From NCBI GenBank assembly GCA_964619725.1, contig CAZUFC010000053.1:1-54364 (forward strand): DNA of 54,364 bases, given 5' to 3'. Position 1 is the stretch's first letter; the number at the start of each line of letters is the position of its first letter. Positions 22,454 to 53,299 of the stretch are shown piece after piece. The position numbers and the translations under genes are program-made. The notes below the pieces were generated by a model, which was given only the letters and a program-made list of their open reading frames with translations, was not told the DNA's origin and did not search any database. This stretch comes from an uncultured bacterium. Its GTDB lineage: Bacteria; CSSED10-310; CAZUFC01.

Positions 22454-22477
22454 TGAATTGACTCCGGGCGGTATAAT

Positions 22478-22554
22478 TAGCGACTGTCAAAAAACTCGAT
22501 TTTCGATTCAAAATTTAATGCCGGACAGTCACTGCGGTTTATCGACAAAAACTG
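22478..22554 (+). repeat. Repeat family B/C, module C copy
   Basis: CGATTCAAAATTTAATGCCGGACAGTCACTGCGGTTT..GACAAAAACT matches 11890-11950 and 495-570. Confidence 0.75.
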
Positions 22555-25577: not shown

Positions 25578-25591
25578 TCAGGAGAAGGGGT

Positions 25592-25996: not shown

Positions 25997-26022
25997 TAAT
26001 AATCACGGAAGGTGGATGAATC

Positions 26023-28362: not shown

Positions 28363-28405
28363 ATCATAATTGCAATTACTTTCATGGGTAAAAGGAGAAA
28401 CTTCT

Positions 28406-29743
28406 ATGAATTATGCAGAAAAATTGGAGAATGTGGCGGTGCTGGGAGCCGCCGGAAAAATGGGCAGCGGTATCGTTCTGCTTACCGCCATGGAGCTGAC
28501 TGATTTAAGCTACCAGCCTGAAAACGAATCCAGGGAATTCGCTGTGAACGCTATCGACGTTTCGGAAAGTGCGCTCACAGGTTTGATGAAATACCTGCAT
28601 GCTCAAGTTAAAAGAGCCGCAGAGAAAAAGACGGTATGGTTAAGGAAATTATACGAGAACAGGGACGATCTGGTTGAGAACCATGAGATGATCGACCAGT
28701 ACATAAACGACGTATTGGCGATAGTAAGGCCGTCGACGCGACTTGAAAACGCTTTTCAGTCGGGGCTGGTTTTCGAGGCCATAAATGAGAACCTGGACCT
28801 TAAAGTAAAGCTTCTTTCCAAGATAAATGAAAACTCTGACAAGGAGATATGGGTCTTTACGAATACTTCTTCCATACCCATAACGGAGCTTGACGATAAG
28901 GTCGGATTGGACGGCAGGGCGCTGGGCGTTCATTTTTATAATCCTCCTGCGGTGCAGAAGCTTGTCGAACTGATATCGGGTCATAAGACCAGGCAGGACC
29001 TGATAGATTTTGCCGAGACTTACGCGAAGAAACTCCGTAAGACCATAGTGCCGGCCAACGACGTGGCGGGTTTCATAGGCAACGGTCATTTTATGAGGGA
29101 CATTCTGCATGCGGTTTCGGAAGTGGAGCGACTATCAGGGGAGTATTCATTCCCGGAAGCCGTTTATATGATCAACAAGGTAAGTCAGGAGTTTTTAATT
29201 CGTCCGATGGGCATATTCCAACTGACGGATTATGTGGGCGTGGACGTTTGTCAGTGTATCCTCGAAGTAATGAATGAAAGAATACATGATGAGGACCTTC
29301 ACAGTTCGCTTATCGACAAAATGATGGAAATGGGTATCAAAGGCGGTCAATATTCGAGCGGCGCTCAGAAGGACGGTTTTCTGAAATATGAGAAGGGAAG
29401 ACCGCAGGGAGTGTATGACCTGGAGAAGGGAGAATATGCAGCTTTTTCCGATCTGGCGCCGAAATGTGATAAGGTATTGGGGCCGCTGCCGGAAGCGGCT
29501 TTACCCTGGAAGCTTATGCTGATGAACCCTGACAAGAATGAAGTCCTGGAGAAACATTTCGCTCAGATGAAAGAAATGGACACCTTGGGAGCTAAGCTGG
29601 CGATGAAATACGGCAGAAGGTCATGCGAAATAGGCAAAAAGCTGGTAGCGGACAATGTGGCGGCCAATAAGGAAGACGTAAACAAAGTATTACTGACGGG
29701 CTTCTATCATGTATATGGCCCGATCAATCATTACTTCTCATAA
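28406..29743 (+). CDS. 3-hydroxyacyl-CoA dehydrogenase family protein (extended form)
   Basis: GAAGKMGSG Rossmann motif, FEAINENLDLK, TNTSS, HFYNPP, GFIGN, PMGIFQLTDYVG. Confidence 0.85.
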   Translation: MNYAEKLENVAVLGAAGKMGSGIVLLTAMELTDLSYQPENESREFAVNAIDVSESALTGLMKYLHAQVKRAAEKKTVWLRKLYENRDDLVENHEMIDQYINDVLAIVRPSTRLENAFQSGLVFEAINENLDLKVKLLSKINENSDKEIWVFTNTSSIPITELDDKVGLDGRALGVHFYNPPAVQKLVELISGHKTRQDLIDFAETYAKKLRKTIVPANDVAGFIGNGHFMRDILHAVSEVERLSGEYSFPEAVYMINKVSQEFLIRPMGIFQLTDYVGVDVCQCILEVMNERIHDEDLHSSLIDKMMEMGIKGGQYSSGAQKDGFLKYEKGRPQGVYDLEKGEYAAFSDLAPKCDKVLGPLPEAALPWKLMLMNPDKNEVLEKHFAQMKEMDTLGAKLAMKYGRRSCEIGKKLVADNVAANKEDVNKVLLTGFYHVYGPINHYFS

Positions 29744-29754
29744 GAGGTGTAAAA

Positions 29755-30996
29755 ATGAAGAAGCGTAAAATTTACATGACTGCCGGATACAACACCATTT
29801 CGCTTGGTTCCGGCAGAAAGGAATTTCGTCCGAAAGACCCCAGGCCAGGACTGGAAAAGTATATTAACGAATCAGGAAAAGCAGTCCTTGAAAAAATCGG
29901 CGGCGCGGAAAAAGTTGATGAAGGAGTGATAGGAAACTTTATGGCGGCCCGTTTCAACCGGCAGGGTAACCTGGCCGCTTTTATTCCCGCTATTGATGAA
30001 GGCTTGAAATGGAAGCCCTGTACCCGTGTGGAAGGCGCCTGCGCTTCCGGCGGATTAGCTCTTACTGCTTCCATGAAATCGATCCTGGCAGAAACCGCAG
30101 AGGTTGTCCTTACGATAGGCGTTGAAGTTCAGAACACGGTCAAAGCGATTTACGGCGCTGATATTCTGGCCGGCGCCGGCTGGTACATGGGTGAAAGAAA
30201 AAAGGGTCACGCCTATTTCTTCCCTTCTCAATTCAGCGACAGGGCCGGAGCGTATTTCGAGAAATTCGGCCGCGACAGATCACGGAAAGCTTTTGCTCGA
30301 TGGTATCGCAACGCTGTAGAAAACGCCAGGCTTTGTGAAACGGCCCAGGAACACCACAACCGTATTCCTGATCTTGAAAAAACAGCCATGATGGAACCCA
30401 ATCCCAAAGTTTTCGTGGACAATTTAAACGTTTTCGACTGCTCAAAAGTTTCCGATGCCGGTTCAGCCATCGCTATTGTATCTGAAGAAGGTCTGGCCCG
30501 AATTGGCGTTCCCAAGGACCAGGCCATCGAAGTGTGCGGATGGGGACAGGTTGAAGCCGATATCACTCATCCTCCCGACGACTTGACTCAACTGGAAACA
30601 ACCAGAAGAGCCGTACAAAAAGCGCTGGAGATGGCCGGCATTACCAAAAATGATCTGGGTACCGTTGAATGCCACGATTGTTTCACGATATCAGGTATCC
30701 TTTCCACCGAAGCCATTGGATTAGCTGAACAAGGCCAGGGGCCGGATTACGTCTCAGCAGGAAATACAGCCAGGGACGGCGAAGTCCCGTTCAATACCTC
30801 CGGAGGCCTGATAGGTTGGGGACATCCCACAGGAGGCACAGGCGTAAGACAGGCCGTCACTATCTGGGAGCAACTGACCGGAAATGCCGGAGAATGGCAA
30901 ATAGATATACCCCCGGACAGACCTTACGGATTGTCCATCAACATGGGCGGAAACGATAAAACCGTCGTTGCCGTCGTTTATAAAAAAGCAGAATAA
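29755..30996 (+). CDS. SCP2-type thiolase
   Basis: VEGACASGG, HDCF, GHPTGGTG, NMGGNDKT (no C-terminal CxG). Confidence 0.85.
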   Translation: MKKRKIYMTAGYNTISLGSGRKEFRPKDPRPGLEKYINESGKAVLEKIGGAEKVDEGVIGNFMAARFNRQGNLAAFIPAIDEGLKWKPCTRVEGACASGGLALTASMKSILAETAEVVLTIGVEVQNTVKAIYGADILAGAGWYMGERKKGHAYFFPSQFSDRAGAYFEKFGRDRSRKAFARWYRNAVENARLCETAQEHHNRIPDLEKTAMMEPNPKVFVDNLNVFDCSKVSDAGSAIAIVSEEGLARIGVPKDQAIEVCGWGQVEADITHPPDDLTQLETTRRAVQKALEMAGITKNDLGTVECHDCFTISGILSTEAIGLAEQGQGPDYVSAGNTARDGEVPFNTSGGLIGWGHPTGGTGVRQAVTIWEQLTGNAGEWQIDIPPDRPYGLSINMGGNDKTVVAVVYKKAE

Positions 30997-38705: not shown

Positions 38706-39254
38706 ATGAAAGATCACATAGGCAGAGAAGAAGTCACAAGAGAGGGTTATCTTCAGGTTTACACAGGTGATGGTAAAGGCAAGACTACAGCAGCAATCGG
38801 ATTGGCGATACGAGCTGCCGGGGCCGGTATGAGGGTGCTGTTGGCGCAATTCGTCAAGGGGATGAAATACAGTGAGATCAGTTTGCTGGAGCGGCTTGAC
38901 GATCTCATCACAGTGAAACAGTATGGTCGGGAATGTTTTATTTACAGGAAGGCTGAGAAAGAAGACGTGGAAGCCGCCCGTTCAGGCCTGCATGAAGTTG
39001 AAGCGGCATTAGTAAATGGAATGTATGATCTGGTTATTCTGGATGAAGCATCCATAGCCGTTCATTACGATTTGTTCAATGCCCGGGAATTGCTTCGGGT
39101 TATTTCAAAAAGGAAAAAAGAATGCGAAGTGGTGGTAACTGGAAGGAAAGCCCCGCCGGAACTCATTGAAGCCGCCGATCTGGTCACGGAAATGAAGGAG
39201 GTAAAGCATTATTATCGCCGGAAAGTCAAAGCCAGGAAGGGCATAGAATGTTGA
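38706..39254 (+). CDS. cobO: Cob(I)yrinic acid a,c-diamide adenosyltransferase (CobO/BtuR)
   Basis: YTGDGKGKTTAAIG, QFVKG, LDEA, TGR.AP, ADLVTEM..KH, RKGIE. Confidence 0.92.
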   Translation: MKDHIGREEVTREGYLQVYTGDGKGKTTAAIGLAIRAAGAGMRVLLAQFVKGMKYSEISLLERLDDLITVKQYGRECFIYRKAEKEDVEAARSGLHEVEAALVNGMYDLVILDEASIAVHYDLFNARELLRVISKRKKECEVVVTGRKAPPELIEAADLVTEMKEVKHYYRRKVKARKGIEC

Positions 39255-39442: not shown

Positions 39443-41803
39443 TCAATCGACTTCTTGCATGAGTCGGACTATTTCCCTTTTCAATTCATTTATTGTAAAA
39501 GGTTTCGTCAGTTTGCCCGTAAAACCGTATTCGGTATAATTAGCCAGTACCGGACCTGAAGCATATCCGCTGGAGACGATCACTCGCGCTGCAGGGTCCT
39601 TTTCGAGAAGCTCCTTGACAGTTTCAGCGCCTCCTTTGCCTCCCGGAACCGTCAGGTCCATGATCACCAGATCATAGGCATCGCCGGACTCTCTTGCGCC
39701 ATCGTATTTCTTCAGGGCTTCGGAGCCTTCAGCCGCAACGTCTACAGTATGACCCAGGAATTCAAGCATTTCCGAGCCTATGTTTCTGATAATTTCTTCA
39801 TCATCCATCAGGAGTATATGAAGATTAGAAGAAAGATTCGTCTTTCCATCGGTATCGGGCGTTTCATGAATTTTTTTCGTTTCTGTTTTGCGGGCAGCAG
39901 GGAGATATATCGTAAAAACAGAGCCTTCTTCCGGCTTGGATTGGACTTCAATTTTGCCGTTGTGCTGGTCTATGATGCTGTTAACAACGGCCAGGCCTAA
40001 TCCGTGACCCGTATCTTTCGTACTGAAATAGGGGTCGAAAATTCGATCAATATGCTTAGGCGCAATACCGGTCCCTTGATCGCGGATAGCGATTCGAACA
40101 AAATCCCCGGTCGGATCAATCGTTGCGGCCTCCTCCGTCCCGGATAAATTTTGGCCTTCGACCTGCAATATTCCACCGCCGGGCATAGCCTGTTTCGCGT
40201 TGACCGTCAGATTCGCAAGCACCTGACCGATTTGTCCTTTATCCGCAATAATGGACCACAATCCATCCTGCAGATTGAATTCAGCCATGACATTGCTGCC
40301 GCGAAGATTGAATTCGACGGTATCGCGCACAAGCTTGTCAGTATTGACCGTATCCAGCACAGGAGCGCCGCCTTTTGAGAAGGTGAGTAGTTGTCCAGTC
40401 AACCGGCGTGCATCCGCAATCGTTTCGTGCGCTTTACGAAGGTAGTATCCGGCCTGCGAATCTCCGGGCATTTCCATCTGTGCCAGTTCCAGGTTCCCGA
40501 AAATAGCCGTCAACAAGTTATTGAAATCGTGCGCGATGCCTCCCGTGACCGTACCCAGCTCCTCAATTTTTTGCATCCGCCGTATTTGTTCATACGCTCT
40601 TTTGCGTTCAGTTATATCGACGATGCTTACGATGATTCCACGGGACGGCTCTTCTGGGTCCAATAAGTTTACCCGGGTAAACCCCTCGAAAAATGAACCG
40701 TGCTGAGTGCGAAACCGCGCATCAAATTCAATAGGCTGAGAAGCCTTTTGCCTCTGATATGTGATCAGGCCGATGCGGCGGTACTCAGCCTCATCCGCAT
40801 ACAACATCGCTGTGTCTTTGCCCACATAATGACTCTCATCTGTGAATCCGAACATCTTTACCATCGCATCGTTCGCCCAGACTATTTTACGGTCCACCGC
40901 ATGAGCCAGTCCCACAGAAGAAGCCTGTAATATGTTGCGCATCATCTCCTGGCTTCTTTTCAGCGCTTCCCGTATTTCATATTCATTCGTCACATCCCTG
41001 AATACCAGAACTATGCCTGTCAAAGAACCGTCGTCGTCTATTATCGGAGCGCCGGAATCCGCTATCTGATATTCTGCTCCGTCCCTGGCGATGAGCATAG
41101 TGTGATTCGCCAGGCCGACAATTTTTCCGGTTTCCAGGACCTTTTTGAACGGGGATTCCAACGTTTCGCCTGTCTTGGAGTTAACGATTTTGAAAACTTC
41201 GTCCAGCTCCTTTCCCCGAGCGCTCTCGATATCCCAGCCAGTAAGTCTCGATGCAACAGGATTTATACGTGCTATTTTTCCCTCTATATCTGTCGAGATT
41301 ACCGCGTCTCCGATTGATGCCAGGGTCGTGCGGAGATTCTCTTCTTTTTCTCTCAGCGACATTTCAGCTCTTTTATGCTCGGTAATGTCCCTTACCGATT
41401 CGATCACCCCGGTTATCTTTCCGACGGCATTCCTCATGGGATAAGACGTCAGATAAATCCAACCCTGAGGATTCTTTTCATCCGGATAGGGAACCTCAGA
41501 AGCTCTTTTTTCTCCCGTTTCAAGAGTGTAAACAGAAGGACACCATGGACATACGGTTTCTCTGTCCTGATATGCCTGATAACATTTTTTCCCTTCCAGC
41601 GGACATTTATGAGCATACATCTCTTCCATCCACTTGTTCACGCGTACTATATTCAGGTCTGAATCAAGCACGCTGAGGCCGTCCTGGATCGCATCGAAGA
41701 TGTTCTGAAGCAAGACTGTATTTTCCTGTATCGGTTCTTTGTCCGTTTTATTCTCTTTTTCGCTGTTTCTGATTAAATTGCCTTCCGCTCCGTCACCATT
41801 CAT
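39443..41803 (-). CDS. Cytoplasmic PAS-domain hybrid sensor histidine kinase (3 PAS + HisKA + HATPase + REC)
   Basis: GIAHDFNNLL, NLTVNAKQA, DQGTGI, FDPYFSTK, GLGLA, LLMDDE...MDLT; ATG 41803 after AGGAG. Confidence 0.92.
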   Translation of the reverse strand: MNGDGAEGNLIRNSEKENKTDKEPIQENTVLLQNIFDAIQDGLSVLDSDLNIVRVNKWMEEMYAHKCPLEGKKCYQAYQDRETVCPWCPSVYTLETGEKRASEVPYPDEKNPQGWIYLTSYPMRNAVGKITGVIESVRDITEHKRAEMSLREKEENLRTTLASIGDAVISTDIEGKIARINPVASRLTGWDIESARGKELDEVFKIVNSKTGETLESPFKKVLETGKIVGLANHTMLIARDGAEYQIADSGAPIIDDDGSLTGIVLVFRDVTNEYEIREALKRSQEMMRNILQASSVGLAHAVDRKIVWANDAMVKMFGFTDESHYVGKDTAMLYADEAEYRRIGLITYQRQKASQPIEFDARFRTQHGSFFEGFTRVNLLDPEEPSRGIIVSIVDITERKRAYEQIRRMQKIEELGTVTGGIAHDFNNLLTAIFGNLELAQMEMPGDSQAGYYLRKAHETIADARRLTGQLLTFSKGGAPVLDTVNTDKLVRDTVEFNLRGSNVMAEFNLQDGLWSIIADKGQIGQVLANLTVNAKQAMPGGGILQVEGQNLSGTEEAATIDPTGDFVRIAIRDQGTGIAPKHIDRIFDPYFSTKDTGHGLGLAVVNSIIDQHNGKIEVQSKPEEGSVFTIYLPAARKTETKKIHETPDTDGKTNLSSNLHILLMDDEEIIRNIGSEMLEFLGHTVDVAAEGSEALKKYDGARESGDAYDLVIMDLTVPGGKGGAETVKELLEKDPAARVIVSSGYASGPVLANYTEYGFTGKLTKPFTINELKREIVRLMQEVD

Positions 41804-42098
41804 TGAGATACTCCTGTGACAAAAAATACTATTCAATGATTGATATCAGTCCGGCCGCTTTCACAACAATGCCCCTGGCGCTTGATTTAGTTTGCCTTTC
41901 GTCAAATTCAGCTTCAGAGCACATTGCTTTTCTCAATTCGATTACCTCAGCAATCAACTCTTTTTATTATAATAGTCAGTATTCCGATCTTCAATGTCTT
42001 TCTCTGTTCGCCTCTGCCGAACTGCATTATGCCTGCGTTAGAGTTCAATCCCTATCGGATTGCTTTTGTCTCAGCCTAATTCAACTTGCTTTGTCGCC

Positions 42099-42905
42099 TT
42101 ATTGACTCATATCCAACCGCCATTTAGGCGAACGTTTTTCAAGAAAAGCTTTCATTCCTTCCTGCGCTTCATCAGAAATGCGCATGCGGGCTATGACGTC
42201 AGCGGTATGATCATAGGCTGTTTTGAGGTCCATTTCAGGGACTTTGATGAAAAGCTCCTTGCATACCGCTATAGCCCGTGGACCGCATAAACACAGCTCC
42301 TTTGCTTTTTCATGCGTGAATTCCAATAATTCGTTATGAGTCACTATGTAATTTATCAGGTTTATTTTCAACGCTTTATCCGGTTTAAAGCGCATGCCGG
42401 TTATGAACAGCTCCTTCAATGCGCCCTGGCCCACTTTTTTCATCAAATAGGGCGATATGCAAGCGGGAACCAGGCCTATTCTGACTTCGGAAAGACTGAA
42501 CCGGGCTTTTTCCGATGCTATCACTATGTCGGAGGCTCCAACGAAACCCATTCCTCCTCCAATGGCAGCGCCGTTTACAGCAGCTATTACAGGTTTTTTC
42601 AAGGTGTAGATTTTATGAAATATCTTTGAGATCATGAGGGAATCTTTGAGGTTTTCTTCGTAGGAGTAGTCCACCATTTTTTTCATCCAGTTAAGGTCGG
42701 CGCCGGCGGAAAAGGATTTGCCTTGACCCGTGAAAACGACGACGCGGATGTCATCATCGCCGGCATCATTAACGGCGTCGAGTATGTCGACCAGTTCGGA
42801 CAACATGGCGTCATTGAAGGCGTTGTGGACATCGGGACGATTCAGCCAGATGGTGATGATATGATCCTTCAGTTCATATTTCAGAGTTTCATATGTTTTA
42901 TTCAT
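42099..42905 (-). CDS. liuC: Crotonase-family enzyme, 3-methylglutaconyl-CoA hydratase (LiuC) type
   Basis: FSAGADLNWM, GGGMGFVGASD (first Glu absent), SEVRIGLVPACISPY, typical of bacterial LiuC-type hydratases. Confidence 0.7.
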   Translation of the reverse strand: MNKTYETLKYELKDHIITIWLNRPDVHNAFNDAMLSELVDILDAVNDAGDDDIRVVVFTGQGKSFSAGADLNWMKKMVDYSYEENLKDSLMISKIFHKIYTLKKPVIAAVNGAAIGGGMGFVGASDIVIASEKARFSLSEVRIGLVPACISPYLMKKVGQGALKELFITGMRFKPDKALKINLINYIVTHNELLEFTHEKAKELCLCGPRAIAVCKELFIKVPEMDLKTAYDHTADVIARMRISDEAQEGMKAFLEKRSPKWRLDMSQ

Positions 42906-43226
42906 TATTTACCTCTCTTTGTTCCGGATTTTATCGATTATTGCTAAAAAGTGAGAGCACGGCGTTGATCAAAAAGTCGCAGCGCCACTCCGTTCCGGCA
43001 TGCCGAGTAAAAATGAGTTTGTGGAGAGCCGCCTGCTATTTCAAAGTCAGCATTTCTTTACTGGGTTTTTGTGCTCGAACACATTGAAGCGGTAGCCGGG
43101 ACGAACAAAAAGCGTTTTTTCCAAGTCACGTTATGGACAAGTATCCGCAGATCGCAGCAACATTTTCCGATTTCGCCGGCGGCTTTGTTAAGAGAATCTC
43201 TTGCATAGGCGCTTGAACGACATTAT

Positions 43227-44396
43227 TTATTTAACGTCGTAGCATCCGATGTGTCTGGATATGACGAGTCGCAGGATTTCCGAAGTGCCTTCGCCGATTT
43301 CCAGGATTTTCTGGTCGCGGTAGAATCTTTCTATGTCGTATTCTTTCATAAGTCCGTAGCCGCCGTGCAGTTGAACGCCGGCATTGACGCATCGGTAAGC
43401 GACTTCTGAGCAGTAAAGTTTGGCCATGGATGCGAATTTTTTATATTCTTTTCGACCCTGGTCGCAGAGCCAGGCGGCTTTGTAGAGGAGCATTCTGGCG
43501 GCTTCAATTTCGACGTGCATATCTGCTAATTTGAACGAGTTGATCTGGAAAGTGGAGATGTGTTTATTGAACTGTTTTCGTTCTTTAGCGTAGTTCAGGC
43601 CCAGTTCAAAAGCGCCTTGAGCGCATCCCAGGCCCATGGCGGCGATGGATAGCCTTCCTCTGTCGAGAGTATCCAGCATTTGATGGAAGCCTTCGCCCTG
43701 TTTGCCCAGCATATTTTTTTCGGGCACGCGCACATCGTCAAAGAAGAGTTCGGAAGTAATGGAGGACCTCCAGAGCATTTTATCGTGCAGGGTATTGGCG
43801 GTGAATCCTTTTGTGCCGTTATCCACGATAAAGCAGGTATATTCTTTTCTGCCGTCGGGCCTTGTTCCTGTAACAGCTTGAACTGTGACGCCGAGGCAGG
43901 CATCGGTGGAGGCGTTGGTGATGAACATTTTGGAGCCGTTGATGACCCATTCGTTACCGTCTTTGACGGCCTTTGTTTTGGTACCGCCTGCGTCGGAGCC
44001 TGCGTCCGCTTCTGTCAGGCCGAATCCCCAGACATATTCGCCGGTGCATAACGGCGGCAGGTATTTCTTTTTCTGCTCTTCATTGCCGAAATAATATAAT
44101 GGGCCAATACCTAAGGAATTATGTGCGGCAACCGTGGCTGCCTGAGAACTGTCTACGCGGGCCAATTCTTCCACCGCAACCATATAAGGAATATAACCGA
44201 AACCGCATCCGCCGTATTCCTCCGTAACGCCGAATCCGAACAGTCCCAATTCGCCCATCTGCCTGGTGATTTCCGGAGAAAATTCCTCCTTTTCATCCAG
44301 TTCCCGCGCTTTGGGTCTTATGACCTCTTCAGCGAATTTTCTGACTGTTTCCCTCATAATTAATGCATCTTCCGACAAATCAAAATTCAAAGCCAT
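43227..44396 (-). CDS. Acyl-CoA dehydrogenase (probably isovaleryl-CoA/3-methylcrotonyl-CoA from context)
   Basis: FGLTEADAGSD, GRLSIAAMGLG, QLHGGYG, EIGEGTSE. Confidence 0.85.
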   Translation of the reverse strand: MALNFDLSEDALIMRETVRKFAEEVIRPKARELDEKEEFSPEITRQMGELGLFGFGVTEEYGGCGFGYIPYMVAVEELARVDSSQAATVAAHNSLGIGPLYYFGNEEQKKKYLPPLCTGEYVWGFGLTEADAGSDAGGTKTKAVKDGNEWVINGSKMFITNASTDACLGVTVQAVTGTRPDGRKEYTCFIVDNGTKGFTANTLHDKMLWRSSITSELFFDDVRVPEKNMLGKQGEGFHQMLDTLDRGRLSIAAMGLGCAQGAFELGLNYAKERKQFNKHISTFQINSFKLADMHVEIEAARMLLYKAAWLCDQGRKEYKKFASMAKLYCSEVAYRCVNAGVQLHGGYGLMKEYDIERFYRDQKILEIGEGTSEILRLVISRHIGCYDVK

Positions 44397-44492
44397 TATT
44401 TCCTCCTCGTTTCAGCATGCTGCAAGTCGTCAGTCGATAATCGCCCGCAAATGAGACGGATTAAACGTCGCTTTGCGAGAATATTAAAAGTG

Positions 44493-45092
44493 TTATTCAA
44501 TAACGAATAACGGTTCGCCTAATTTAACTTCCTGTGAATCTTCCACAAAGATTTTCTTTATTTTGCCTCTCTCTGAATTATCCGTTCCCTGAAAAATGAT
44601 ATGGTTGAATGTTTTCATCACTTCGATCAAGCCGAGCGCCTTTCCTTTTTCTATTTCCTGTCCGACCGAAACGAAAGGGGGAGCATCAGGAGAGGGTTTG
44701 GCGTAGAAAACGCCAGTGGTGAAAGCCGTCACCACGAACCCTTCTTCATGAATGTCGGATTCCGTCTCTTGACTATCGATTTCTGCATCCTGAAAGGTTT
44801 CTCCCTTGCGGAGCAGGGCTTTTTCCGTGTTAAGCCGGAAAAGTTCCTGGCCGTATTCAACGGGAATGACCAGATCGGCCTTTTCATTGGCGTTAACTTC
44901 GCCGGAGATATTGGAAGGCAGGTGCAGGTCATAGTACGTGTTAAGAATTTTAATTTTTCCGGCGAAAGCGCCGCCGGTGAGGAACGAATGATTTCCGGGT
45001 CTTTCAGAATAGTATCCGACGCCGGGCGCTAAAACAATATGCCTCTCTTCATTTTTATCCAAAAGAACTTCCATTTTGCGTTCAGCAGTCAT
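44493..45092 (-). CDS. Biotin carboxyl carrier protein with an extra N-terminal biotinyl-like domain
   Basis: C-terminal IEVMKT biotinylation motif, GVFY..PSPDAPPFV; ATG 45092 after GGAGG. Confidence 0.85.
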   Translation of the reverse strand: MTAERKMEVLLDKNEERHIVLAPGVGYYSERPGNHSFLTGGAFAGKIKILNTYYDLHLPSNISGEVNANEKADLVIPVEYGQELFRLNTEKALLRKGETFQDAEIDSQETESDIHEEGFVVTAFTTGVFYAKPSPDAPPFVSVGQEIEKGKALGLIEVMKTFNHIIFQGTDNSERGKIKKIFVEDSQEVKLGEPLFVIE

Positions 45093-45093
45093 A

Positions 45094-46836
45094 TCAACCT
45101 CCCTGGCTTCCGGATAAAGCCTCAATATCATGCAGGGACCAAATACGCGGGTTTTTGACCCTGCGGTAACCTGTCGCCTGATAAGACATTTCGATCATCG
45201 TTTCCAGGTAAGGGCGCAGCTCGTGCAGCAAAATAATTTCATCGCTGTCCAACTGCCGAGCTGAAAGAATGGGGTCCATATCCTTGGTTATGCGCCTTTC
45301 GACTTCTTCCATACCCTTTTTAACGGCCTGTCGCTCCTGTTCGTTTTCAGCAATAATATTAAAATCGTCGTCGAGTCTCGTTCTGTAAGCGCCGATAGCG
45401 AGCGTTCTTCCTTCCATGACGGCGAGTCGTGAAAGGGGTGTGGAGAGTTGGACGATGGGTTCGTATGGTCTGCCGTTCATGGCGTAATATCCGGCTCCTG
45501 AAGCTTTTCGAAGGAGGACGGTAATGACCGGCACGGTATTGGTGGAATTGGTGTAAAGGAGATTGGAGCCCCAACCGAGGAGGCCGGTTTTTTCAGCTTC
45601 GGGACCGATGTCGAAACCGGCAATATCCTGAAGCCAGATAATGGGAACGCCGTCGCTGTTGCAAGCCCTGGCGAAAGTGGTTATCTTGGCGATGCCGTCC
45701 CTGTAAAGCAATCCACCGGACCGTTTTTCGCCCCGATGGATGGTGTGTTCGGTCAAATTCTGGTTGTTCGTTATAAAACCGGCGTAAAGTCCGTTGATTT
45801 TTCCTATGCCGGTGATAATTTCCTTGCCCCTGTCCGGAAACAATTCCCAGAAAAGCGAATTGTCCGTCAGCCTGGCGATGACCTGCCTGGAATCATAGGT
45901 GACCCTGTAATCCGAAGGGAATATACCCTCTATCTCTTCCGGATCATAAAGTGGCGGAGCCGGTTCCTGTCCGTAGCAGTAATACTCGATCCCTGAAGAG
46001 GGCAGTTTGGCGATTTCTTCACGAATTTTCGTCAGGCAGGTTTCGTCGTCAGGAGCCCTGTGGTCGGCGCAATTGGAAATATTAACGTGGATGTCGGGTC
46101 CTCCGATCGTCAGCGAGGTTATTTTCTGACTTTTTCCTCCTTTGACGAGAGCCGCTCCGGCGATCACCATGTAGGCCTGTTCGGTCATATAGACCACATC
46201 GCTTATGATCGGCATATAACCGCCGCCGGCAATGCAGTCTCCGAAAACGCCGGCTATTTGGGGTACCTGTTGAGCGCTCAGCAACGCGTTCATTTTAAAA
46301 ATATAACCCGCTCCCGTTTTCCCGGCGAAAGTCCTGGATTGTTCCGGAAGGTAAAGTCCGCTGCAATCGATAAGATAGACGACGGGAATTCGCAGACGCA
46401 GCGCAATTTCCTGCGCTCTTTCAATTTTTTCCGGGGTAAGCGGCCACCAGGAACCGGAAGCGACTGTATTATCGTTAGCTATGACGACTACGTACCTGTT
46501 CTGAATCTTAACGAATGCCGTGATCACGCCGGCGCCCGGCGCCTTGCGTCTGGCGCTTCCTTCGCCGAATTCGATGCCGAAATTGACGAACGTGCCTATG
46601 GGGAAGACCCTGCTGCCGGCATCCTTTAATAATTCTATCCGTTCCCAGGTGGTGAGTTTGCCCTTTTTATGCACGCGGTCGACATATTTTTGTCCCCAGC
46701 CGGCCCTCACTTCAGCTCGTTTCTCCAGATATCCCTCATTCAATTTCTTCATATGGTCCATGTTTTTAGTGAATTCCCGCGTATCCATAAAGTTCTCTAC
46801 AGGAGAACCGATACGTTCCAACAACACTTTGGCCAT
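45094..46836 (-). CDS. Acyl-CoA carboxylase carboxyltransferase (MccB/LiuB-like, fused alpha/beta)
   Basis: [41 protein letters not shown]. Confidence 0.85.
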
Positions 46837-46860
46837 TTATTAATCCTCCATTTCCGCAGT

Positions 46861-48210
46861 TTATTCTATGATGTCGCTGAGAGAATTATTATGGTATTCG
46901 CCTTCTCTGAAAATTTTTGAATTGAGTATCTCCAGGTGGAGCGGTATGGTGGTTTTGATTCCTGTGATCTTAAAGCGATTCAATGCGTTGATCATGGTCC
47001 TGATGGCGTGGGTCCTGTCTTCACCATGCGCAATAATTTTGCATATCATTGAATCGTAGAATGTGGGTATTTCATAACCCGCTTTGACATGCGTATCGAG
47101 TCTTATTTTACCTGGTCCCTCCTGCAACGGAGGATTAAAGGTTTCTATAACGCCGGGCGACGGAGCGAAATTATTCTCCGGGTCCTCGGCATTAATGCGG
47201 CATTCAATGGCATGACCGCTGAAACCAACTTCTTCCTGTTTTATCGAAAGAGGATGTCCTGCAGCAATTTTTATCTGTTCAGCAACGATGTCGAAGCCGG
47301 TAATCATTTCCGTCACCGGATGTTCCACCTGCAGGCGTGTGTTCATTTCCATAAAGTAAAGGTTTTTGTCCTGATCCATGAGGAATTCGACCGTGCCGGC
47401 GTTGCGATAACCGATTTTATTTACGGCTTCAGCAACCAGGTTTCCCATTGAGTGTCGCTGTTCCGCGTCCACTGCTGGAGAAGGCGATTCTTCGATCAGT
47501 TTTTGATTTTTTCTTTGGATAGAGCATTCTCTTTCGCCCAGGTGTATGGAATTGCCGTAATCATCCGATAGAACCTGGAATTCGATATGCCTGCCTTTCA
47601 AAATCAATTTTTCCAGGTAAAGGTCGCCGCTTCCGAAGGCTTTTTCCGCTTCAATTTTAGCCTGATCGTAAAAAGTTTTCAGTTCGTCGTCATTATAGCA
47701 GGGCCTTATTCCTTTACCGCCGCCGCCGGCCGTCGCTTTCAGCAATACCGGATAGTTCAGTCGATTCGCCAGCTCCAGCGCCTGCTCCACACTTTTGATA
47801 TTGCCTTCCGATCCCGGAATAGTCGGCAATCCCGCCTGTTTTACGGTCTGTTTTGCTTCCGATTTGTTGCCCATAAGCCGGATGGCGCCGGAAGGAGGGC
47901 CGATGAATGTCAATTTCTGCTGCCGGCACATATAGGCGAATAAAGGGTCTTCAGCCATGAAGCCGAAACCGGGATGCACCGCCTGACATTCATGATTGAT
48001 TCCGGCCTGAAGAATGGCTTCTTTGTTAAGGTAACTGCGACTGCTGGGTCCCGGACCTATCCATACTTTGCGGTCCGCTTCGTTAAGGTGAGGAGAGTCT
48101 TTATCCGCGGTGGAGTAAACAGCAGCAGTTTCTATTCCCAACTTTCTGCACGCGTCGATGATGCGCAGCGCCACCTCGCCGCGATTGGCGATTAATATTC
48201 GTTTGAACAT
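46861..48210 (-). CDS. accC: Biotin carboxylase subunit
   Basis: ILIANRGEVA, HPGFGFMAE, KATAGGGGKG, ERECSIQR, EMNTRLQVEHPVTE, CRINAED. Confidence 0.92.
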   Translation of the reverse strand: MFKRILIANRGEVALRIIDACRKLGIETAAVYSTADKDSPHLNEADRKVWIGPGPSSRSYLNKEAILQAGINHECQAVHPGFGFMAEDPLFAYMCRQQKLTFIGPPSGAIRLMGNKSEAKQTVKQAGLPTIPGSEGNIKSVEQALELANRLNYPVLLKATAGGGGKGIRPCYNDDELKTFYDQAKIEAEKAFGSGDLYLEKLILKGRHIEFQVLSDDYGNSIHLGERECSIQRKNQKLIEESPSPAVDAEQRHSMGNLVAEAVNKIGYRNAGTVEFLMDQDKNLYFMEMNTRLQVEHPVTEMITGFDIVAEQIKIAAGHPLSIKQEEVGFSGHAIECRINAEDPENNFAPSPGVIETFNPPLQEGPGKIRLDTHVKAGYEIPTFYDSMICKIIAHGEDRTHAIRTMINALNRFKITGIKTTIPLHLEILNSKIFREGEYHNNSLSDIIE

Positions 48211-48351
48211 TTTGGCTATACCTCGTTTAAAAAAGAGTCACCGCAGAGTCCGCAGAGTCCTCCCTTACAGCCTGCTGCATGAAAAACTCAACGTTCTCCG
48301 CGGCGAGCGCTTTACAGAATAAAAACGTTCATTTCAGGGCCGGGGCTCAAT

Positions 48352-48756
48352 TCAGAGTCCCACGTCCGGCACAAATTTGAATCCGTACATAATCATTCCG
48401 CTTGTGCCTTCTTCATTGATGCGACGGAATTGGGCCGTCATACGGTCCCCAATTTTCAAATCTTCCGGATCGCAGTCGGTTATTTGAGCCATCACTCGGA
48501 TGCCTTCATCCAGTTCAACGATGCCGACGGCAAAGGGCGCCAGATCGCCGAACCCCATGGGCGCTACTCGAATGATGGTATACGTGGCCAGATGACCTTT
48601 GCCCGACAGTTTGACGGTATCGAACTCACGGGACCGACATTCCGGGCATACAAGCCGCGCCGGAAGATGGATATTACCGCATTTGACGCATTTGCCCGCT
48701 TCCATTCTATAACGTTCAGGGGTTTCCCTCCAGTGCCTCGCTACATGATGTCCCAT
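48352..48756 (-). CDS. DUF35 (Zn-ribbon + OB-fold) scaffold protein
   Basis: CxxC...P.R..CPEC, G.LATYT.I, PFAVGIVEL.EG, YGFKF; start abuts the thiolase stop. Confidence 0.9.
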   Translation of the reverse strand: MGHHVARHWRETPERYRMEAGKCVKCGNIHLPARLVCPECRSREFDTVKLSGKGHLATYTIIRVAPMGFGDLAPFAVGIVELDEGIRVMAQITDCDPEDLKIGDRMTAQFRRINEEGTSGMIMYGFKFVPDVGL

Positions 48757-49910
48757 TATCGCGCCTCCAGGATGTGAGTGATTGAACTGGCGCCGGAGCC
48801 GCCCATATTTTGCGTCAGGGCTATGCCGGCGTTTTTGATTTGTCGTTGTCCCGCTTCACCCCGCAACTGGTTGACGGCTTCAACCACCTGCGCCACGCCC
48901 GTGGCGCCTACGGGATGCCCCTTGGCTTTCAGACCCCCGGAAGGATTCACAGGAAAATCACCGTCCAACGCCGTCAGGCCGTCCATAACTGCAGGGCCTC
49001 CCTGACCGGGTTCAACTATTCCCAAAGCTTCCATGATCATTATCTCGGCAATCGTAAAGCAATCATGAACCTCGGCAAAGTCAACATCCTTAATCGATTT
49101 GTCGGCCATCTGCAACGCCCTCTCAACAGAAACCTTAACCGATTCCAACTGAGCCAGGTTCTTCCTCTGGCATAAAGCTATGGTATCGGTCGCATTGCCT
49201 ATTCCCGTAATGACCGCATAAGGTTTGTTCAGTTTTTTCGCCTGTTCCTCTGTCGTGAGCAACACTGCTGCAGCGCCGTCTGTGATCGGCGAGCAGTGAA
49301 AAAGGCGTACGGGGTCCGCTATCATTGTGGAATTCATGACGTTTTCCAGCGTTACCTTGAAAGGATATTGAGCATTAGGATTCATGCTGCCGTTATGATG
49401 ATTTTTGACCGCTACCTGAGACATTTGTTCCAGGGTAGTGCCGTATTGATGCATATGAGCGTTGGCCATCATGGCGTAGAGTCCCGGGAAGGTGACGCCG
49501 TGAAAGGCTTCGTAATCCTGATCGGATGCGGAGGCCAAACCGAATGTGGCTTCACCGCCGTCAACATCCGTCATCTTTTCCACCCCGACTGCCAGGACAG
49601 TTTCCGCCAGGCCGGAAGCTATCTCCATGTATGCCGTTTTTACCGCAAGACCACCGGATGCGCATGCTGATTCAACTCTCGTCGAAGGCACGAATCGCTG
49701 CCCCATATAGTCCGCCACCATTGAAGCCAGATGCTCCTGAGCGTTAAATAACCCGCTTGACATGCAACCGACCGTGATCGCATCCAACTTGTCCGCTTCA
49801 GCATCATCCAGACACTTCAGGGCCGCTTCTACCGCCAAATCACGCAGAGATTTTTCCCATAACTCTCCCCACTTCATAATTCCTATGCCGATTACTGCTA
49901 CATCTTGCAT
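48756..49910 (-). CDS. Archaeal-type acetoacetyl-CoA thiolase
   Basis: [38 protein letters not shown] 49910 after GGAGGTG. Confidence 0.88.
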
Positions 49911-49922
49911 GAGATTCACCTC

Positions 49923-50969
49923 CTATTCCGGTTTCCGTATTTTGCGCCTGAATTTGGCGTAGGTTCCATATTGAATGTAAATCTTATGCTCATCCAACTG
50001 CTTCCGCGTCCTCGGAGCCGCATCGCGCACCTTCGTCAAACGGTCTGTCGTTCGAAATACAAAAGCATCGCTGCCGGCTCCCGATCCGTAAGAACACAAC
50101 AATATCATCTGACCGGGCTGGGCTTCGTCCAGAGTGGCCGCCAGCCCCATGGGCGACGAGCCTGAATAGGTGTTGCCTAAGTAAGGACATAATAATCCGT
50201 ATTTATATTGCGGTTCTTTGAATCCTAAACGTTTGGCGGCATTCGCAGGAAATTTGCCGTTGGGCTGATGAAATATCACATAATCAAAATCTTCCGGCTT
50301 CATTCCTACCTTCTCCAACATGCCTTTCGTCGCTCCGTCAATGTGCTTCTCATAAGCCGGTTTGCCCGTGAAACGCCCTCCATGCTCAGGATAATGCGCA
50401 TGCTCGCGGCGCCAGAAATCCGGAGTATCAGTCATATAGCAATGAGTATCAATCAGTTCGGCGATCACATTCTCGCGGCCCATTATGAAAGCCGCCGCTC
50501 CTGCTGCAGCAGAATACTCCAGTGCATCTCCCGGCGCTCCCTGAGACGTGTCCGCTCCGATGCCCAGCGCGTACTCGACTGTGCCTGCTTTGACCAGATT
50601 AAGAGCGATGAACATCCCTTCCGTCCCTGCCTTGCAGGCGAATTCCAAATCCGCCGTGTGAACGTAAGGACAAGCGCCCAGGGCCTCTGATACTACTGTG
50701 CCGGTCGGTTTGACCGCATAAGGATGCGATTCGCTGCCCACATATACGGCCCCTATCTTCGCAGCATCAATACCGGCGCGCCTTACCGCATTGCGAGCGG
50801 CATTGACCGACAATGTCAGACAATCTTCATCCGGCGCAGGTACCGATTTCTCAATCAGATTCAATCCGCGCTTATAGGCCGGCGCATCAGTCCCCCAGAC
50901 TTTCGCTATCTCTTCTACCTTGATCCGGTACCGGGGAATATGAGTTCCGTATCCGACAATTCCTATCAT
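49923..50969 (-). CDS. mvaS: Archaeal-type hydroxymethylglutaryl-CoA synthase (UPF0219)
   Basis: GSESHPYAVKP (Glu), DLEFACKAGT (Cys), FHQPNGKFP (His), GNTYSG, SYGSGAG. Confidence 0.88.
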   Translation of the reverse strand: MIGIVGYGTHIPRYRIKVEEIAKVWGTDAPAYKRGLNLIEKSVPAPDEDCLTLSVNAARNAVRRAGIDAAKIGAVYVGSESHPYAVKPTGTVVSEALGACPYVHTADLEFACKAGTEGMFIALNLVKAGTVEYALGIGADTSQGAPGDALEYSAAAGAAAFIMGRENVIAELIDTHCYMTDTPDFWRREHAHYPEHGGRFTGKPAYEKHIDGATKGMLEKVGMKPEDFDYVIFHQPNGKFPANAAKRLGFKEPQYKYGLLCPYLGNTYSGSSPMGLAATLDEAQPGQMILLCSYGSGAGSDAFVFRTTDRLTKVRDAAPRTRKQLDEHKIYIQYGTYAKFRRKIRKPE

Positions 50970-51382
50970 TCAAACCTCCTTTTTCCTCTTTGTGCCTTCT
51001 GTGTAACTCTGGAATTTTGGGAATACACTCTATTCCGGCTTTCCAGCATTACGGACTTTTAATCCGGCCCAGTTTACAGAAAAATGAAGAATTAATCAAA
51101 TGCCGCTTACCACTTTTCCAGTCTGACGAATATCAAGTTGCTTCCGGATGCCGGATATCCTGCCCTGTTGGGTTTGCGACGGACGCTGATCCCTTTCCGA
51201 TGCCTGATGCCGTGCGGCGGATGCTGATCGCCGGACGACGGATTGCGCTGGAATATTTATGACTTTGGTGCAGGGCTTTAAACGGGAATCTGAATCTTTG
51301 ATTGCAGCTTCAGGGGATGAGTATGGACTGGCGAAGAGACGATATTCAGATGTTGCGGAGAACTATTTCCTATCTCTTCCGT

Positions 51383-53299
51383 TCAACCGTGGCGCTCATC
51401 ATTTTCAGAATGAAGAGGGCGAAGAACGCTCAGGTTTAAAAATATCACCGTCGATAAGAGGACAATGACCAGCGCTATTGCTTCGTATCCCAGGTTGGGG
51501 ACCGGTAAAGACACAGCGGTCGGGGTTGGAGAAGGGGTCGGGATAGGAGTCCTGGTGGGAGTGGGCGGGGGCGGACCTACAGCCGGGTAATCTCCGGGAG
51601 GTTTACTTTTGATCTGCTGTTGAACTATCACGGAGTCGATAATGATATCCTGGGTCGCCAGGTATAAATCATCAAAGGGAATGGGATTAATAGCTTATTG
51701 CAGGCGTTCGTCCATGATGCCTTTATGCAATGAGACGCGACAGGCATTTTTTTCTGAACTGCACTTATCGCTCCGGCTTGAAGTTCCTGCGTAGCCTGCA
51801 ATCATGTCAGACGGCAAATCCCCGGTCATGGCATCCAGAAAACCGATTTCGAAACATGAGGGTGAATTCGGCAGCAGATAACGGAATTGAGGAAGTATCG
51901 TTATTCCCGCAAGATTGAAAAACGCATAAAAATTCTTTAATTCCGGGTCATCGGTCTCCGTCAGTATAAAAACGTCGAAAGCAGGATCGAAAACCGGTAT
52001 GAAGAACGGCGCCACTTGGATGTCTAGGGTTCTGAATCCCAAATCGGCATAGCCGTGTAACAGAGGTGGAGCGGAAAAATCGCCGGTATTGCGAAAAAAA
52101 TAAATAACCTCGTCTGATGCTGCTATAAAATCGGTGTAATATGAATAATTGTAGAGGGGACCGAGCGCTATTTCAGTGATCTGATGCCCCATTTCATAGA
52201 CTGGGAGATCGTGAAGTGATATGGCGGCGTTTTCCAACTCGATGAAACCGGCGTTTTTATTCGAATTTCTTCCAACATGCTGGAGCGAATAATAAAATCG
52301 AATGTTTTTATGTTCTTCCGGAGGCAGTGAAGCATCAGACTCAAATGCGGCCATCAAATCGTCCGTATTTTGACCGAACCAGGGATTAAAAAAGTTTTCA
52401 CAAGCGATCTGGATCAGGCGACAGTCTTCGATGACGAAAGAGTAATCCTCCATTTTTTCCCCGAGGGCGAAAGAAGCGGATTCTTCGGGATCGGGGGGCA
52501 TGAGTTCAATGTCATAGGTAACGATAGCGCATCGGTAATCCTGCGGATCAACGGGATTCATAGCCAGGATAAGTTCTTTTTTTCCGTTTCCGTCAGGATC
52601 GGATGGTCCGTCGACGTCCCCGGCTGCAATGGAAACGATTGAGGCCGGAGTAAATTCTCCCGGAACGTCGTCATCAGGGATGTGAGAGGTGATGAAGGCG
52701 GCCCTGTTTAATTCCTGATGGTTGTTGACGTATATTAAACCTTCTTCAGCCGAAGCATCCCGACGTTCAAACAGGTATAAATTGTAATGAGGTTCTTGAG
52801 CCGTGCCCGGATCGGATTCATCTGTGGCGACGATGAGGTCGAGATGATAAGGATCGGAAGCGTTATCCATCAAGGGCGCAGTCGCGAGTTGAACGATTCG
52901 GCCGAAGCAGGGCGGAGACAACACAGGGGCAGGTTGAGCCTCGCCGGAAAGCAGCAGTCTTCCCGGAGTCTGCCATCGTCCATCCTGCTCCGGTTCGCAA
53001 TAATATGTGTTGCAAATCATAAATACTCTGACCTCATCGCAGTCAAGCGACTCGTTATGCGACGCAAAAGCCGCCTCCGCAAGAAGAGAACAGGGAAGAG
53101 GATTCGCAGCAGGCGTAGGAGAATGCGCCGGTGTGTGCGACGGCGTAACTGTCGCTCGATTGGATTTCGTATTGAAAATATGAGGTGCGTGATCAACAGT
53201 TCCTTGAACTGCAGGCGAGAATGACTCTATCGAACACATTAAAAAACACAGTATGAAAAATAAAAGGCATGACCTTAAATTCACAATGACTCCCCTCAT
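51383..53299 (-). pseudogene. Exported FG-GAP-like protein with PT linker and C-terminal anchor, interrupted by an in-frame TAA at 51695-51697
   Basis: ORFs 51695-53299 and 51383-51631 share one frame; the 21 codons between them (AINPIPFDDLYLATQDIIIDS) are open. Confidence 0.7.

Follow-up and report, generated by a model that had tools for sequence, protein, structure and literature searches.

The Liu (leucine/isovalerate utilisation) pathway, encoded for example by liuABCDE in Pseudomonas, leads from isovaleryl-CoA by way of an acyl-CoA dehydrogenase (ACAD), a biotin-dependent carboxylase and a hydratase to HMG-CoA (3-hydroxy-3-methylglutaryl-CoA), and canonical liu operons end in HMG-CoA lyase. 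In archaea HMG-CoA is formed by a complex of HMG-CoA synthase (HMGS), a thiolase and a DUF35 protein (PDB 6ESQ/6ET9), and Myxococcus xanthus possesses an alternative biosynthesis of isovaleryl-CoA that employs MvaS, LiuC, AibA/B and AibC (PMC5389471). Here we describe a window, that is the whole 54,364-nt contig CAZUFC010000053.1 of an uncultured bacterium of the lineage CSSED10-310, in which an archaeal-type HMGS/thiolase/DUF35 triad shares one run of eight genes with a biotin carboxylase (BC), a carboxyltransferase (CT), a biotin carboxyl carrier protein (BCCP), an ACAD and a crotonase-family enoyl-CoA hydratase (ECH). We propose, with a probability that we put at roughly 0.58, that these eight genes are a Liu-type operon for the anaerobic breakdown of isovaleryl-CoA derived from leucine or isovalerate, in which the triad takes the place of the lyase and is run in reverse.

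Gene content of the cluster and of its genome

In the assembly G000 (9.17 Mb; 90.86% complete, 6.5% contamination), which has only the phylum in common with its nearest reference genomes, the window makes up contig C53. All eight open reading frames were found on the minus strand at the borders given in an initial annotation of the sequence (42,099-50,969; Table 1), with intergenic gaps of -38 to 321 nt. A strong Shine-Dalgarno-like AAGGAGG lies upstream of HMGS, only 3 nt part HMGS from the thiolase gene, and the start of the DUF35 gene overlaps the thiolase stop by 1 nt. The BCCP gene may truly start at an ATG 13 codons in, which would remove its 38-nt overlap with the CT gene. A scan of positions 41,700-51,700 gave 19 promoter-like sites (11.9 ± 3.0 in shuffles) and 11 terminator-like sites (11.7 ± 2.9 in shuffles), and is uninformative on operon structure.

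The HMGS is single-copy in G000. Its alignment to the HMGS chain of Methanothermococcus (6esq_I) reaches 474 bits, and the blocks SESHPYA, EFACKAG, FHQPNGKF and GNTYSG, which we take to carry the four catalytic residues of HMGS (the E-C-H-N tetrad), are identical or near-identical in the two proteins. The thiolase scores 364.6 bits against 7yvy_A and 358.6 bits against 6esq_A, and its alignment to the former shows that the CxS, HDxF and GHx motifs are kept (ACASGG, VHDCFT and GHPVGATG). According to PMC12960953, the Muc and Phl homologues of the triad have lost the HMGS tetrad and the thiolase HDxF and act as C-acyltransferases. The window's triad differs from these homologues in its conserved HMGS blocks and thiolase motifs; judged by its sequence, it is a genuine HMGS/ACAT/DUF35 set. 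As the three proteins match the subunits of the solved structure at about 60% identity, they would be expected to form a physical channelling complex.

Related HMGS loci were collected as the 80 best in one-genome-per-species contigs, 39 bacterial and 41 archaeal, and mapped with the window's eight proteins; a locus is called linked when CT, BC, ECH or ACAD lies beside the triad. In a quick maximum-likelihood tree of 80 rows, from which locus L024 was omitted for an in-frame stop, a branch supported at 100% stands between the 39 bacterial rows and the 41 archaeal ones. The archaeal type that the initial annotation assigned to the HMGS is upheld at the level of the family (TIGR00748, 524.4 bits), with the qualification that the protein belongs to a distinct bacterial clade. 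Within that part of the tree the window falls inside a fully supported clade of 12 rows, 11 of them linked and the twelfth on a short contig, whereas six of the seven stand-alone bacterial triads associated with HMG-CoA reductase (HMGR) form a separate six-row clade (97% support) and none of them is found in the window's clade.

All three parts of a biotin enzyme are encoded in the cluster, the BC without a fused BCCP domain, and 3-methylcrotonyl-CoA is the presumed substrate of the enzyme. Against PDB entries the CT shows a near tie between GcdA (1pix, 236.8 bits over the full length), the beta subunit of propionyl-CoA carboxylase (PCC; 236.7), AccD1 (234.7) and the beta subunit of 3-methylcrotonyl-CoA carboxylase (MCC; 231.4 and 229.7); its relatives are named either MCC beta or PCC in their sources, no family model names it, and its 580-aa lineage is distinct from that of the canonical 535-aa MCC beta (32-37% identity between the two). 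The ACAD and the hydratase had been called a leucine-pathway and a LiuC-type enzyme, respectively. An ACAD and a crotonase fold are indeed present, but both labels are drawn from context. The ACAD is nearer to butyryl-CoA-dehydrogenase-type enzymes (7szv, 367 bits; 5ol2_C, 351) than to isovaleryl-CoA dehydrogenases (265-272), and shares 60-63% identity with the ACADs found at Bacteroidota triad loci. The hydratase stays below every family cut-off, its best NCBIfam match being gamma-carboxygeranoyl-CoA hydratase (NF004227, 239.3 bits against a cut-off of 426), and is 47% identical to the ECH of a Bacteroidales cluster, L014.

The initial annotation had noted that neither HMG-CoA lyase nor HMGR is encoded in the window, and this extends to the whole assembly. 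Whole-genome profile searches of G000 returned no match to HMGR (PF00368), to HMG-CoA lyase (NF004283, cut-off 246 bits) or to the HMGL-like domain (PF00682), and tblastn with lyases from relatives, among them a set of four, found none either. No acetoacetate-CoA ligase was found in G000, its best match to mevalonate kinase reaches 77 bits, below the cut-off of 163, and IspH of the MEP route is present. Among the genomes with a triad, a strong HMGR match was detected in one of the 18 in which a carboxylase subunit lies beside the triad, compared with 7 of the 18 in which the triad stands alone; counting all 22 linked genomes, two have such a match (L030 and L047). A role in mevalonate synthesis is excluded for G000 and for most linked genomes.

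The cluster is the only MCC-like set of G000, and both crotonases found in this genome lie in the window, the cluster hydratase being one of the two. As the genome also encodes one EtfAB pair, one strong 2-oxoacid dehydrogenase E1 and five 2-oxoacid:ferredoxin oxidoreductase loci, it is plausible that isovaleryl-CoA is supplied and that an electron acceptor for the ACAD is at hand. Its only family-I CoA-transferase pair (PF01144) is of the ScoAB/PcaIJ type (TIGR02429 and TIGR02428, both above cut-off) and is found among pyrimidine-degradation-like genes.

A separate observation concerns leucine synthesis. With no PF00682 match at all, G000 yielded no LeuA, CimA or pyruvate carboxylase B, and its LeuB/homoisocitrate-dehydrogenase-like and LeuCD-like genes have no condensing enzyme beside them (L093, C11:91.8-94.9 kb); this could mean that the organism is auxotrophic, that it uses a condensing enzyme of unknown type or that the assembly has a gap here. 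The missing domain prompted the idea that the cluster substitutes for LeuA in leucine synthesis, which we rejected, as the linked genomes G032, G033, G037, G038, G040 and G044 have strong LeuA-like matches.

Linkage and the alternation of lyase module and triad

The triad lies beside CT, BC, ECH or ACAD in 21 of the 39 bacterial loci and in none of the 41 archaeal ones, and in 17 of the 21 it is a carboxylase subunit that adjoins it. Loci L011 and L013 have the window's eight-gene order at about 80% identity, and L012 follows it up to the ACAD, where the contig ends. Two further arrangements were found: CT-ECH-BC...HMGS-THL-DUF35-ACAD (THL, thiolase) in Bacteroidales, and HMGS-THL-DUF35-CT-ECH-BC, with or without ACAD, in metagenome-assembled genomes labelled Aminicenantes, Acidobacteriota, Eubacteriales, Spirochaetia and Eisenbacteria. 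In both of these arrangements the CT is of the canonical 535-aa type. The triad is therefore joined to two separate carboxylase lineages, and three gene orders or more are involved.

The same association is seen from the carboxylase side, in the 80 best metagenome loci for the 580-aa CT. The triad is present in 11 of the 12 loci with a CT of at least 74% identity and at least 4 kb of upstream DNA, the full eight-gene order recurs in L094, L095, L100, L103 and L109, and L099 shares it with the ECH cut at the contig end. At 64-70% identity most BC-CT-BCCP modules are without the triad and their contexts are variable; among the triad-less relatives of the 580-aa CT, two of ten annotated loci adjoin a fused BCKDH-E1-like gene. 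No HMG-CoA lyase was found in the 160 related loci of the two surveys, including those beside triad-less 580-aa CT members. In treating the triad and the carboxylase/ACAD/hydratase set as one unit, the initial annotation was right. Neighbouring genes fit catabolism loosely: a Leu/Glu-type dehydrogenase lies directly upstream of HMGS in L037, a citrate synthase gene is found in L034 and a Na:alanine symporter gene in L009, and mutase and beta-oxidation sets accompany the cluster in the window and in L011.

L121 (9001-10722) carries a copy of the 580-aa CT, 77% identical, without BC, BCCP or triad, on a 42%-GC contig with adjoining restriction-modification genes. In the nearest relative from the window's phylum, L174 (G001:C162), HMGS-THL-DUF35-ECH is followed by an Rrf2 regulator and no carboxylase lies within 10 kb.

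The function of the triad is illuminated by Bacteroidales, where an even sample of 201 genomes was surveyed for the orthologue of the canonical CT, an HMG-CoA-lyase-like gene and the archaeal-type HMGS. The CT orthologue was found in 90 genomes, a lyase-like gene in 48 (at 174-204 bits, below the NF004283 cut-off) and the HMGS in 4. Of the lyase-like and HMGS genomes, 45/48 and 4/4, respectively, also have the CT, and no genome belongs to both sets. All five lyase-type loci retrieved (L177, L178, L179, L183 and L184) have the order ACAD-(BC or 5S-type subunit)-ECH-CT-two HMGL-like genes, and all five include an acetoacetate-CoA ligase (TIGR01217, 875-933 bits; cut-off 521). In the triad-type locus L180 the order is CT-ECH-BC-HMGS-THL-DUF35-ACAD; this locus has a CT 76% and an ACAD 71% identical to those of the Bacteroidales cluster L014, and has neither HMG-CoA lyase nor acetoacetate-CoA ligase at the locus. 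Compared with the lyase-type loci, the L014 proteins are 72-73% (CT), 56-67% (ECH) and 70-76% (ACAD) identical, indicating that the partner genes are orthologous in the two types of operon.

Of the 13 Bacteroidales genomes (out of 201) with acetoacetate-CoA ligase, 12 are lyase-positive and none is HMGS-positive. The ligase was found in none of the 25 linked HMGS genomes searched; among all 44 genomes with the HMGS two have it, and in each of these the triad stands alone. A similar division is found in the window's own phylum, where the HMGS occurs without a lyase in G000 and G001 and a lyase above cut-off occurs without the HMGS in G003, G004 and G008; the lyase of G004 ends a CT-ECH-BC-lyase cluster. 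As orthologous operons carry either lyase and ligase or the triad, the pattern is one of non-orthologous displacement, and we read the block from HMG-CoA to acetoacetyl-CoA and acetyl-CoA as one for which either the lyase with the ligase or the triad may provide.

Four of the five lyase-type loci show a further peculiarity, in that the ATP-grasp BC is replaced by a 724-aa OadA/PycB-like protein (L177:4687-6861; by tblastn also in L178, L179 and L183) that combines an HMGL-like 5S domain, PYC_OADA and BCCP (NF006761, 306 bits). Its domain composition suggests an ATP-free oxaloacetate:3-methylcrotonyl-CoA transcarboxylase.

Proposed direction, energetics and competing explanations

In the pathway that we propose, the ACAD would oxidise isovaleryl-CoA to 3-methylcrotonyl-CoA and pass the electrons to the single EtfAB pair of G000; the split biotin enzyme (BC, 580-aa CT and BCCP) would then carboxylate 3-methylcrotonyl-CoA to 3-methylglutaconyl-CoA at the cost of one ATP, and the crotonase would hydrate the latter to HMG-CoA. 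The HMGS/thiolase/DUF35 complex would act at the step at which canonical operons use HMG-CoA lyase, in Bacteroidales together with acetoacetate-CoA ligase. Operating in reverse, HMGS would convert HMG-CoA and CoA to acetoacetyl-CoA and acetyl-CoA, pulled by the channelled and strongly exergonic thiolysis, so that overall HMG-CoA and 2 CoA would yield 3 acetyl-CoA, the thioester being kept and free acetoacetate avoided. As the carboxylase retains its ATP-grasp subunit, we place isovaleryl-CoA before HMG-CoA in the flux. What the sequences show are the identities of the genes, their conserved linkage, the lack of a mevalonate pathway and the alternation of lyase module and triad in orthologous operons; what we infer are the substrates on which ACAD, CT and hydratase act and, above all, the direction of the triad.

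With one ATP spent on carboxylation and three gained from acetyl-CoA, the balance would be about +2 per isovaleryl-CoA, compared with an estimated balance of about 0 for lyase plus AMP-forming ligase, +1 for lyase plus CoA-transferase and +1 for excretion of isovalerate by way of the Ptb-Buk fusion encoded in the window. We consider it somewhat better than an even chance that in many anaerobic bacterial phyla the triad, with the two opening steps of the mevalonate pathway reversed, has been recruited as a CoA-dependent "HMG-CoA thiolase", replacing lyase and acetoacetate activation and making the complete oxidation of leucine and isovalerate pay for fermenters and syntrophs. Thiolase condensation is taken to cost about +25 kJ/mol and the HMGS reaction to yield about -20 to -30 kJ/mol; as their sum would be near equilibrium (an estimated 0 ± 10 kJ/mol), the direction would be set by concentrations. 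An anaerobic precedent is the mechanistically similar citrate synthase of Desulfurella acetivorans, which is run backwards (PMC9768450).

Several observations weigh against this proposal. The ACAD of the cluster is nearest to butyryl-CoA-dehydrogenase-type enzymes, which in fermenters usually reduce enoyl-CoA. HMG-CoA synthase is treated as irreversible in textbooks, and we know of no demonstrated reversal of this enzyme. In Bacteroidales, 41 of the 90 CT-positive genomes have neither a lyase-like gene nor HMGS at the thresholds used, and the zero overlap is weak with only four HMGS genomes, having a probability of about 0.06 under independence by a hand calculation over CT-positive genomes, which as relatives are not independent. 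One linked genome, L030, has HMGR. G000 is 9% incomplete and has a ScoAB-type 3-oxoacid CoA-transferase elsewhere, so that an unassembled lyase could in principle be served. Finally, G034, G035 and G036, which share the eight-gene order, and likewise G047 and G057, each carry a gene of the HMGL family that narrowly passes the NF004283 cut-off (257-278 bits). A family-III CoA-transferase adjoins all five of these genes, and LeuCD-like or LeuB-like genes accompany four of the five (the sites with the CoA-transferase are L088:5705-9834, L089:1763-5105, L090:376-2890, L091:8072-10288 and L092:769-4099). This context suggests genes of the citramalyl-CoA-lyase type, perhaps a CoA-dependent entry to a citramalate/2-oxobutyrate route, and they may alternatively serve as HMG-CoA lyase; G000 has no homologue of this lyase or of its family-III CoA-transferase.

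The initial annotation had offered, as one option, a new route from acetyl-CoA to isovaleryl-CoA, with the biotin enzyme and ACAD in place of AibA/B/C. In such a scheme the triad would make HMG-CoA, the hydratase would dehydrate it, the biotin enzyme would decarboxylate the product, either discharging carboxybiotin or making ATP, and the ACAD with ETF would reduce 3-methylcrotonyl-CoA to isovaleryl-CoA as a primer of iso-fatty acids or as a source of isovalerate. Such a route keeps HMGS and thiolase in their known direction, suits an ACAD that is nearest to reductive enzymes, and could follow from the exchange of lyase for synthase, which might by itself flip the direction of the pathway. Among the phyla that bear the cluster, Bacteroidota, Acidobacteriota and Ignavibacteriota are rich in iso-fatty acids, which counts in its favour, and the Myxococcus pathway provides a precedent (PMC5389471). 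The biotin enzyme is difficult to accommodate in it, as every linked locus with enough DNA keeps the BC and some lyase-type loci have a 5S-type carboxyl donor, neither of which a plain decarboxylase needs. One decarboxylation yields about -25 to -30 kJ/mol, and at physiological ATP/ADP the synthesis of ATP from it would be infeasible save at extreme substrate ratios. The six linked Bacteroidota with LeuA-like genes named above can already make the leucine skeleton, and sister operons with orthologous partner genes, those of Bacteroidales that end in lyase and acetoacetate-CoA ligase, are clearly catabolic. The cluster has no AibA/B-type gene (no PF01144 gene) and no AibC-type gene, AibC not having been specifically searched for, and the lone family-I CoA-transferase pair of the genome is ScoAB-type and stands in another context. 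The anabolic option retains some standing, and on balance we judge it weaker and unlikely.

The other option had been that both acetyl-CoA and leucine are funnelled into HMG-CoA for mevalonate. Widened to a convergent supply of HMG-CoA, from acetyl-CoA through the triad and from leucine through the carboxylase branch, to mevalonate or an unknown sink, it would let every enzyme work in its textbook direction; a leucine-to-mevalonate shunt has been proposed for archaea (PMC12979851), and L030, as mentioned, has HMGR. The mevalonate sink fails in G000, which has no HMGR and no mevalonate kinase above cut-off and does have IspH, and a strong HMGR match is missing from 20 of the 22 linked genomes. 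The clusters have no conserved candidate for an HMG-CoA-consuming enzyme next to them, and six of the seven HMGR-associated stand-alone triads keep to their own clade of the tree, outside the window's, so that we hold a convergent supply to be highly improbable. Quite improbable, too, is that two unrelated units merely adjoin, a triad acting on another substrate in the manner of BbsAB or PhlABC and an acyl-CoA carboxylase for propionyl-, crotonyl- or glutaconyl-CoA. The near-equal scores of the CT against GcdA, PCC beta and MCC beta would suit this, as would the more distant BC-CT-BCCP modules (64-70% CT identity), most of which are without the triad. Chance adjacency is hard to reconcile with a linkage that recurs across many phyla, involves either of two CT lineages and takes three or more gene orders; the HMGS is above its equivalog cut-off and keeps its catalytic blocks, unlike Phl and Muc, and the CT partners of the canonical type are orthologous to those in lyase-bearing liu clusters. 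Weighing these points together, we favour the oxidation of isovaleryl-CoA with the triad in reverse, a reading that the initial annotation had not raised.

Neighbouring genes and relation to known systems

Table 1. Cluster genes and neighbouring features of the window (scores in bits; family cut-offs in brackets)
Feature	Position	Strand	Description
HMGS, archaeal-type	49923-50969	-	348 aa, first gene; TIGR00748 524.4 (353.35), NF003274 532.2 (244)
Thiolase, archaeal-type acetoacetyl-CoA, HMGS partner	48756-49919	-	387 aa; archaeal/SCP-x type; NF004720 517.1 (420)
DUF35 scaffold protein	48352-48756	-	134 aa; PF01796 86.3 (OB fold), zinc ribbon PF12172 35.9
Biotin carboxylase, stand-alone ATP-grasp subunit	46861-48210	-	449 aa; NF006367 639.6 (597); PF02786, PF00289, PF02785
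Carboxyltransferase	45094-46836	-	580 aa; PF01039 324.5; presumed 3-methylcrotonyl-CoA carboxyltransferase
BCCP	44493-45131	-	212 aa; PF00364 37.8; TIGR00531 82.6, below cut-off (115.2); EVMKT biotin-site-like motif
ACAD	43227-44396	-	389 aa; all three ACAD domains; isovaleryl-CoA dehydrogenase presumed from context
Crotonase-family hydratase	42099-42905	-	268 aa; PF00378 188.6; presumed 3-methylglutaconyl-CoA hydratase
Companion branched/short-chain acyl-CoA island	19278-30996	+	Ptb-Buk fusion, DUF6125, MeaB, B12 acyl-CoA mutase large and small subunits, Bcd-like ACAD, crotonase, 3-hydroxyacyl-CoA dehydrogenase, thiolase
Cob(I)yrinic acid a,c-diamide adenosyltransferase	38706-39254	+	PF02572 215.1; NF004637 201.4 (185)
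Hybrid PAS histidine kinase/response regulator	39443-41836	-	directly downstream of the cluster; PAS, HisKA, HATPase_c, Response_reg

The window holds a second set of acyl-CoA genes, the companion island of Table 1, and in L011 a similar island (IcmF-type fused mutase, DUF6125, ACAD, ECH, 3-hydroxyacyl-CoA dehydrogenase and thiolase) lies directly upstream of the eight-gene cluster. The adenosyltransferase would be a source of cofactor for the B12 mutase, and the PAS hybrid kinase is a possible candidate for a regulator of the operon. Within the island, butyrate kinase (TIGR02707, 441 bits; cut-off 289) shares a single 755-aa open reading frame (19278-21545) with a phosphotransacylase-like domain (PF01515), the two being fused. 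The 3-hydroxyacyl-CoA dehydrogenase (28370-29743) is unusually long at 457 aa, with an insertion in the NAD-binding domain (profile positions 1-179 extend over residues 21-231), and comparable enzymes of 444-449 aa are encoded in L011 and L085.

DUF6125 (PF19620, 245 bits at window positions 21911-22453) is an uncharacterised family that recurs beside branched-chain acyl-CoA genes (L011:8317-8841, L012:143-631, L103:3399-3887, L177:11548-12273, L179:5971-6666 and L183:10158-10853). Its neighbour is the B12 acyl-CoA mutase both in the window and in L011, and it adjoins HMGL-like genes in three of the five Bacteroidales lyase-type loci, consistent with a common metabolic neighbourhood. Far from the cluster, a 3164-aa protein (1978-11472) with ten right-handed beta-helix stretches and Chlamydia PMP repeats has a paralogue-like neighbour of 459 aa (13000-14379); the two are probably giant surface adhesins.

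Anaerobic oxidation of isovalerate and leucine proceeds close to the thermodynamic limit. If the reversal proposed here is true, an enzyme held irreversible would have a new physiological direction, as has happened with citrate synthase in the roTCA cycle, the retention of an "archaeal" mevalonate module in bacteria that use the MEP route would be explained, and the ATP bookkeeping of branched-chain amino-acid fermentation would change. If the cluster is instead anabolic, it would be a biotin-dependent analogue of the myxobacterial pathway and likewise new. Current ecogenomic reconstructions, among them one extensive study on anaerobic digesters, define the degradation of isovalerate by carboxylation, lyase and beta-oxidation (PMC7382037); as triad-type organisms have no lyase, such rules would score them as non-degraders of isovalerate. 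Full-text searches, covering the main texts of papers outside subscription journals, yielded no account of a methylcrotonyl-CoA-type carboxylase with the triad at its side, and none of leucine catabolism by way of a reversed HMGS, and we rate the cluster as a known leucine/isovalerate pathway in a new form, widespread in uncultured anaerobes.

Compared with the Liu pathway, the implied sequence of ACAD, biotin-dependent 3-methylcrotonyl-CoA carboxylase, 3-methylglutaconyl-CoA hydratase and HMG-CoA is the same, whereas the cluster and the assembly have no HMG-CoA lyase and the triad stands in its place; BC, 580-aa CT and BCCP here correspond to a fused alpha and a 535-aa beta subunit there, and the ACAD is Bcd-like rather than IVD-like. 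The Bacteroidales lyase-type clusters have CT, ECH and ACAD orthologous to those of L014, and DUF6125 nearby in three of five, and differ in ending in two HMGL-like genes and acetoacetate-CoA ligase and, in four of five, in having a 5S-type OadA/PycB-like protein with BCCP for BC. With the archaeal HMGS/thiolase/DUF35 complex the window shares the order of the three genes, the catalytic motifs and the zinc ribbon and OB fold of DUF35; unlike that complex, its triad is found in a bacterium without the mevalonate pathway, in a leucine-type operon and in a separate bacterial clade, and its proposed direction is reversed.

In the Myxococcus pathway, too, isovaleryl-CoA metabolism involves an HMGS and a LiuC-like hydratase that have no part in mevalonate synthesis. 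The window differs in its archaeal-type HMGS, which is accompanied by thiolase and DUF35; where the Myxococcus pathway has the cofactor-free decarboxylase AibA/B and the reductase AibC, it has an ATP-dependent biotin carboxylase and an ACAD, and the direction that we favour is the opposite one. The reversed citrate synthase of Desulfurella acetivorans belongs to a different family and no homology is claimed; the likeness is one of analogy only, in that a thioester-hydrolysing condensing enzyme regarded as "irreversible" is run in reverse by an anaerobe short of energy.

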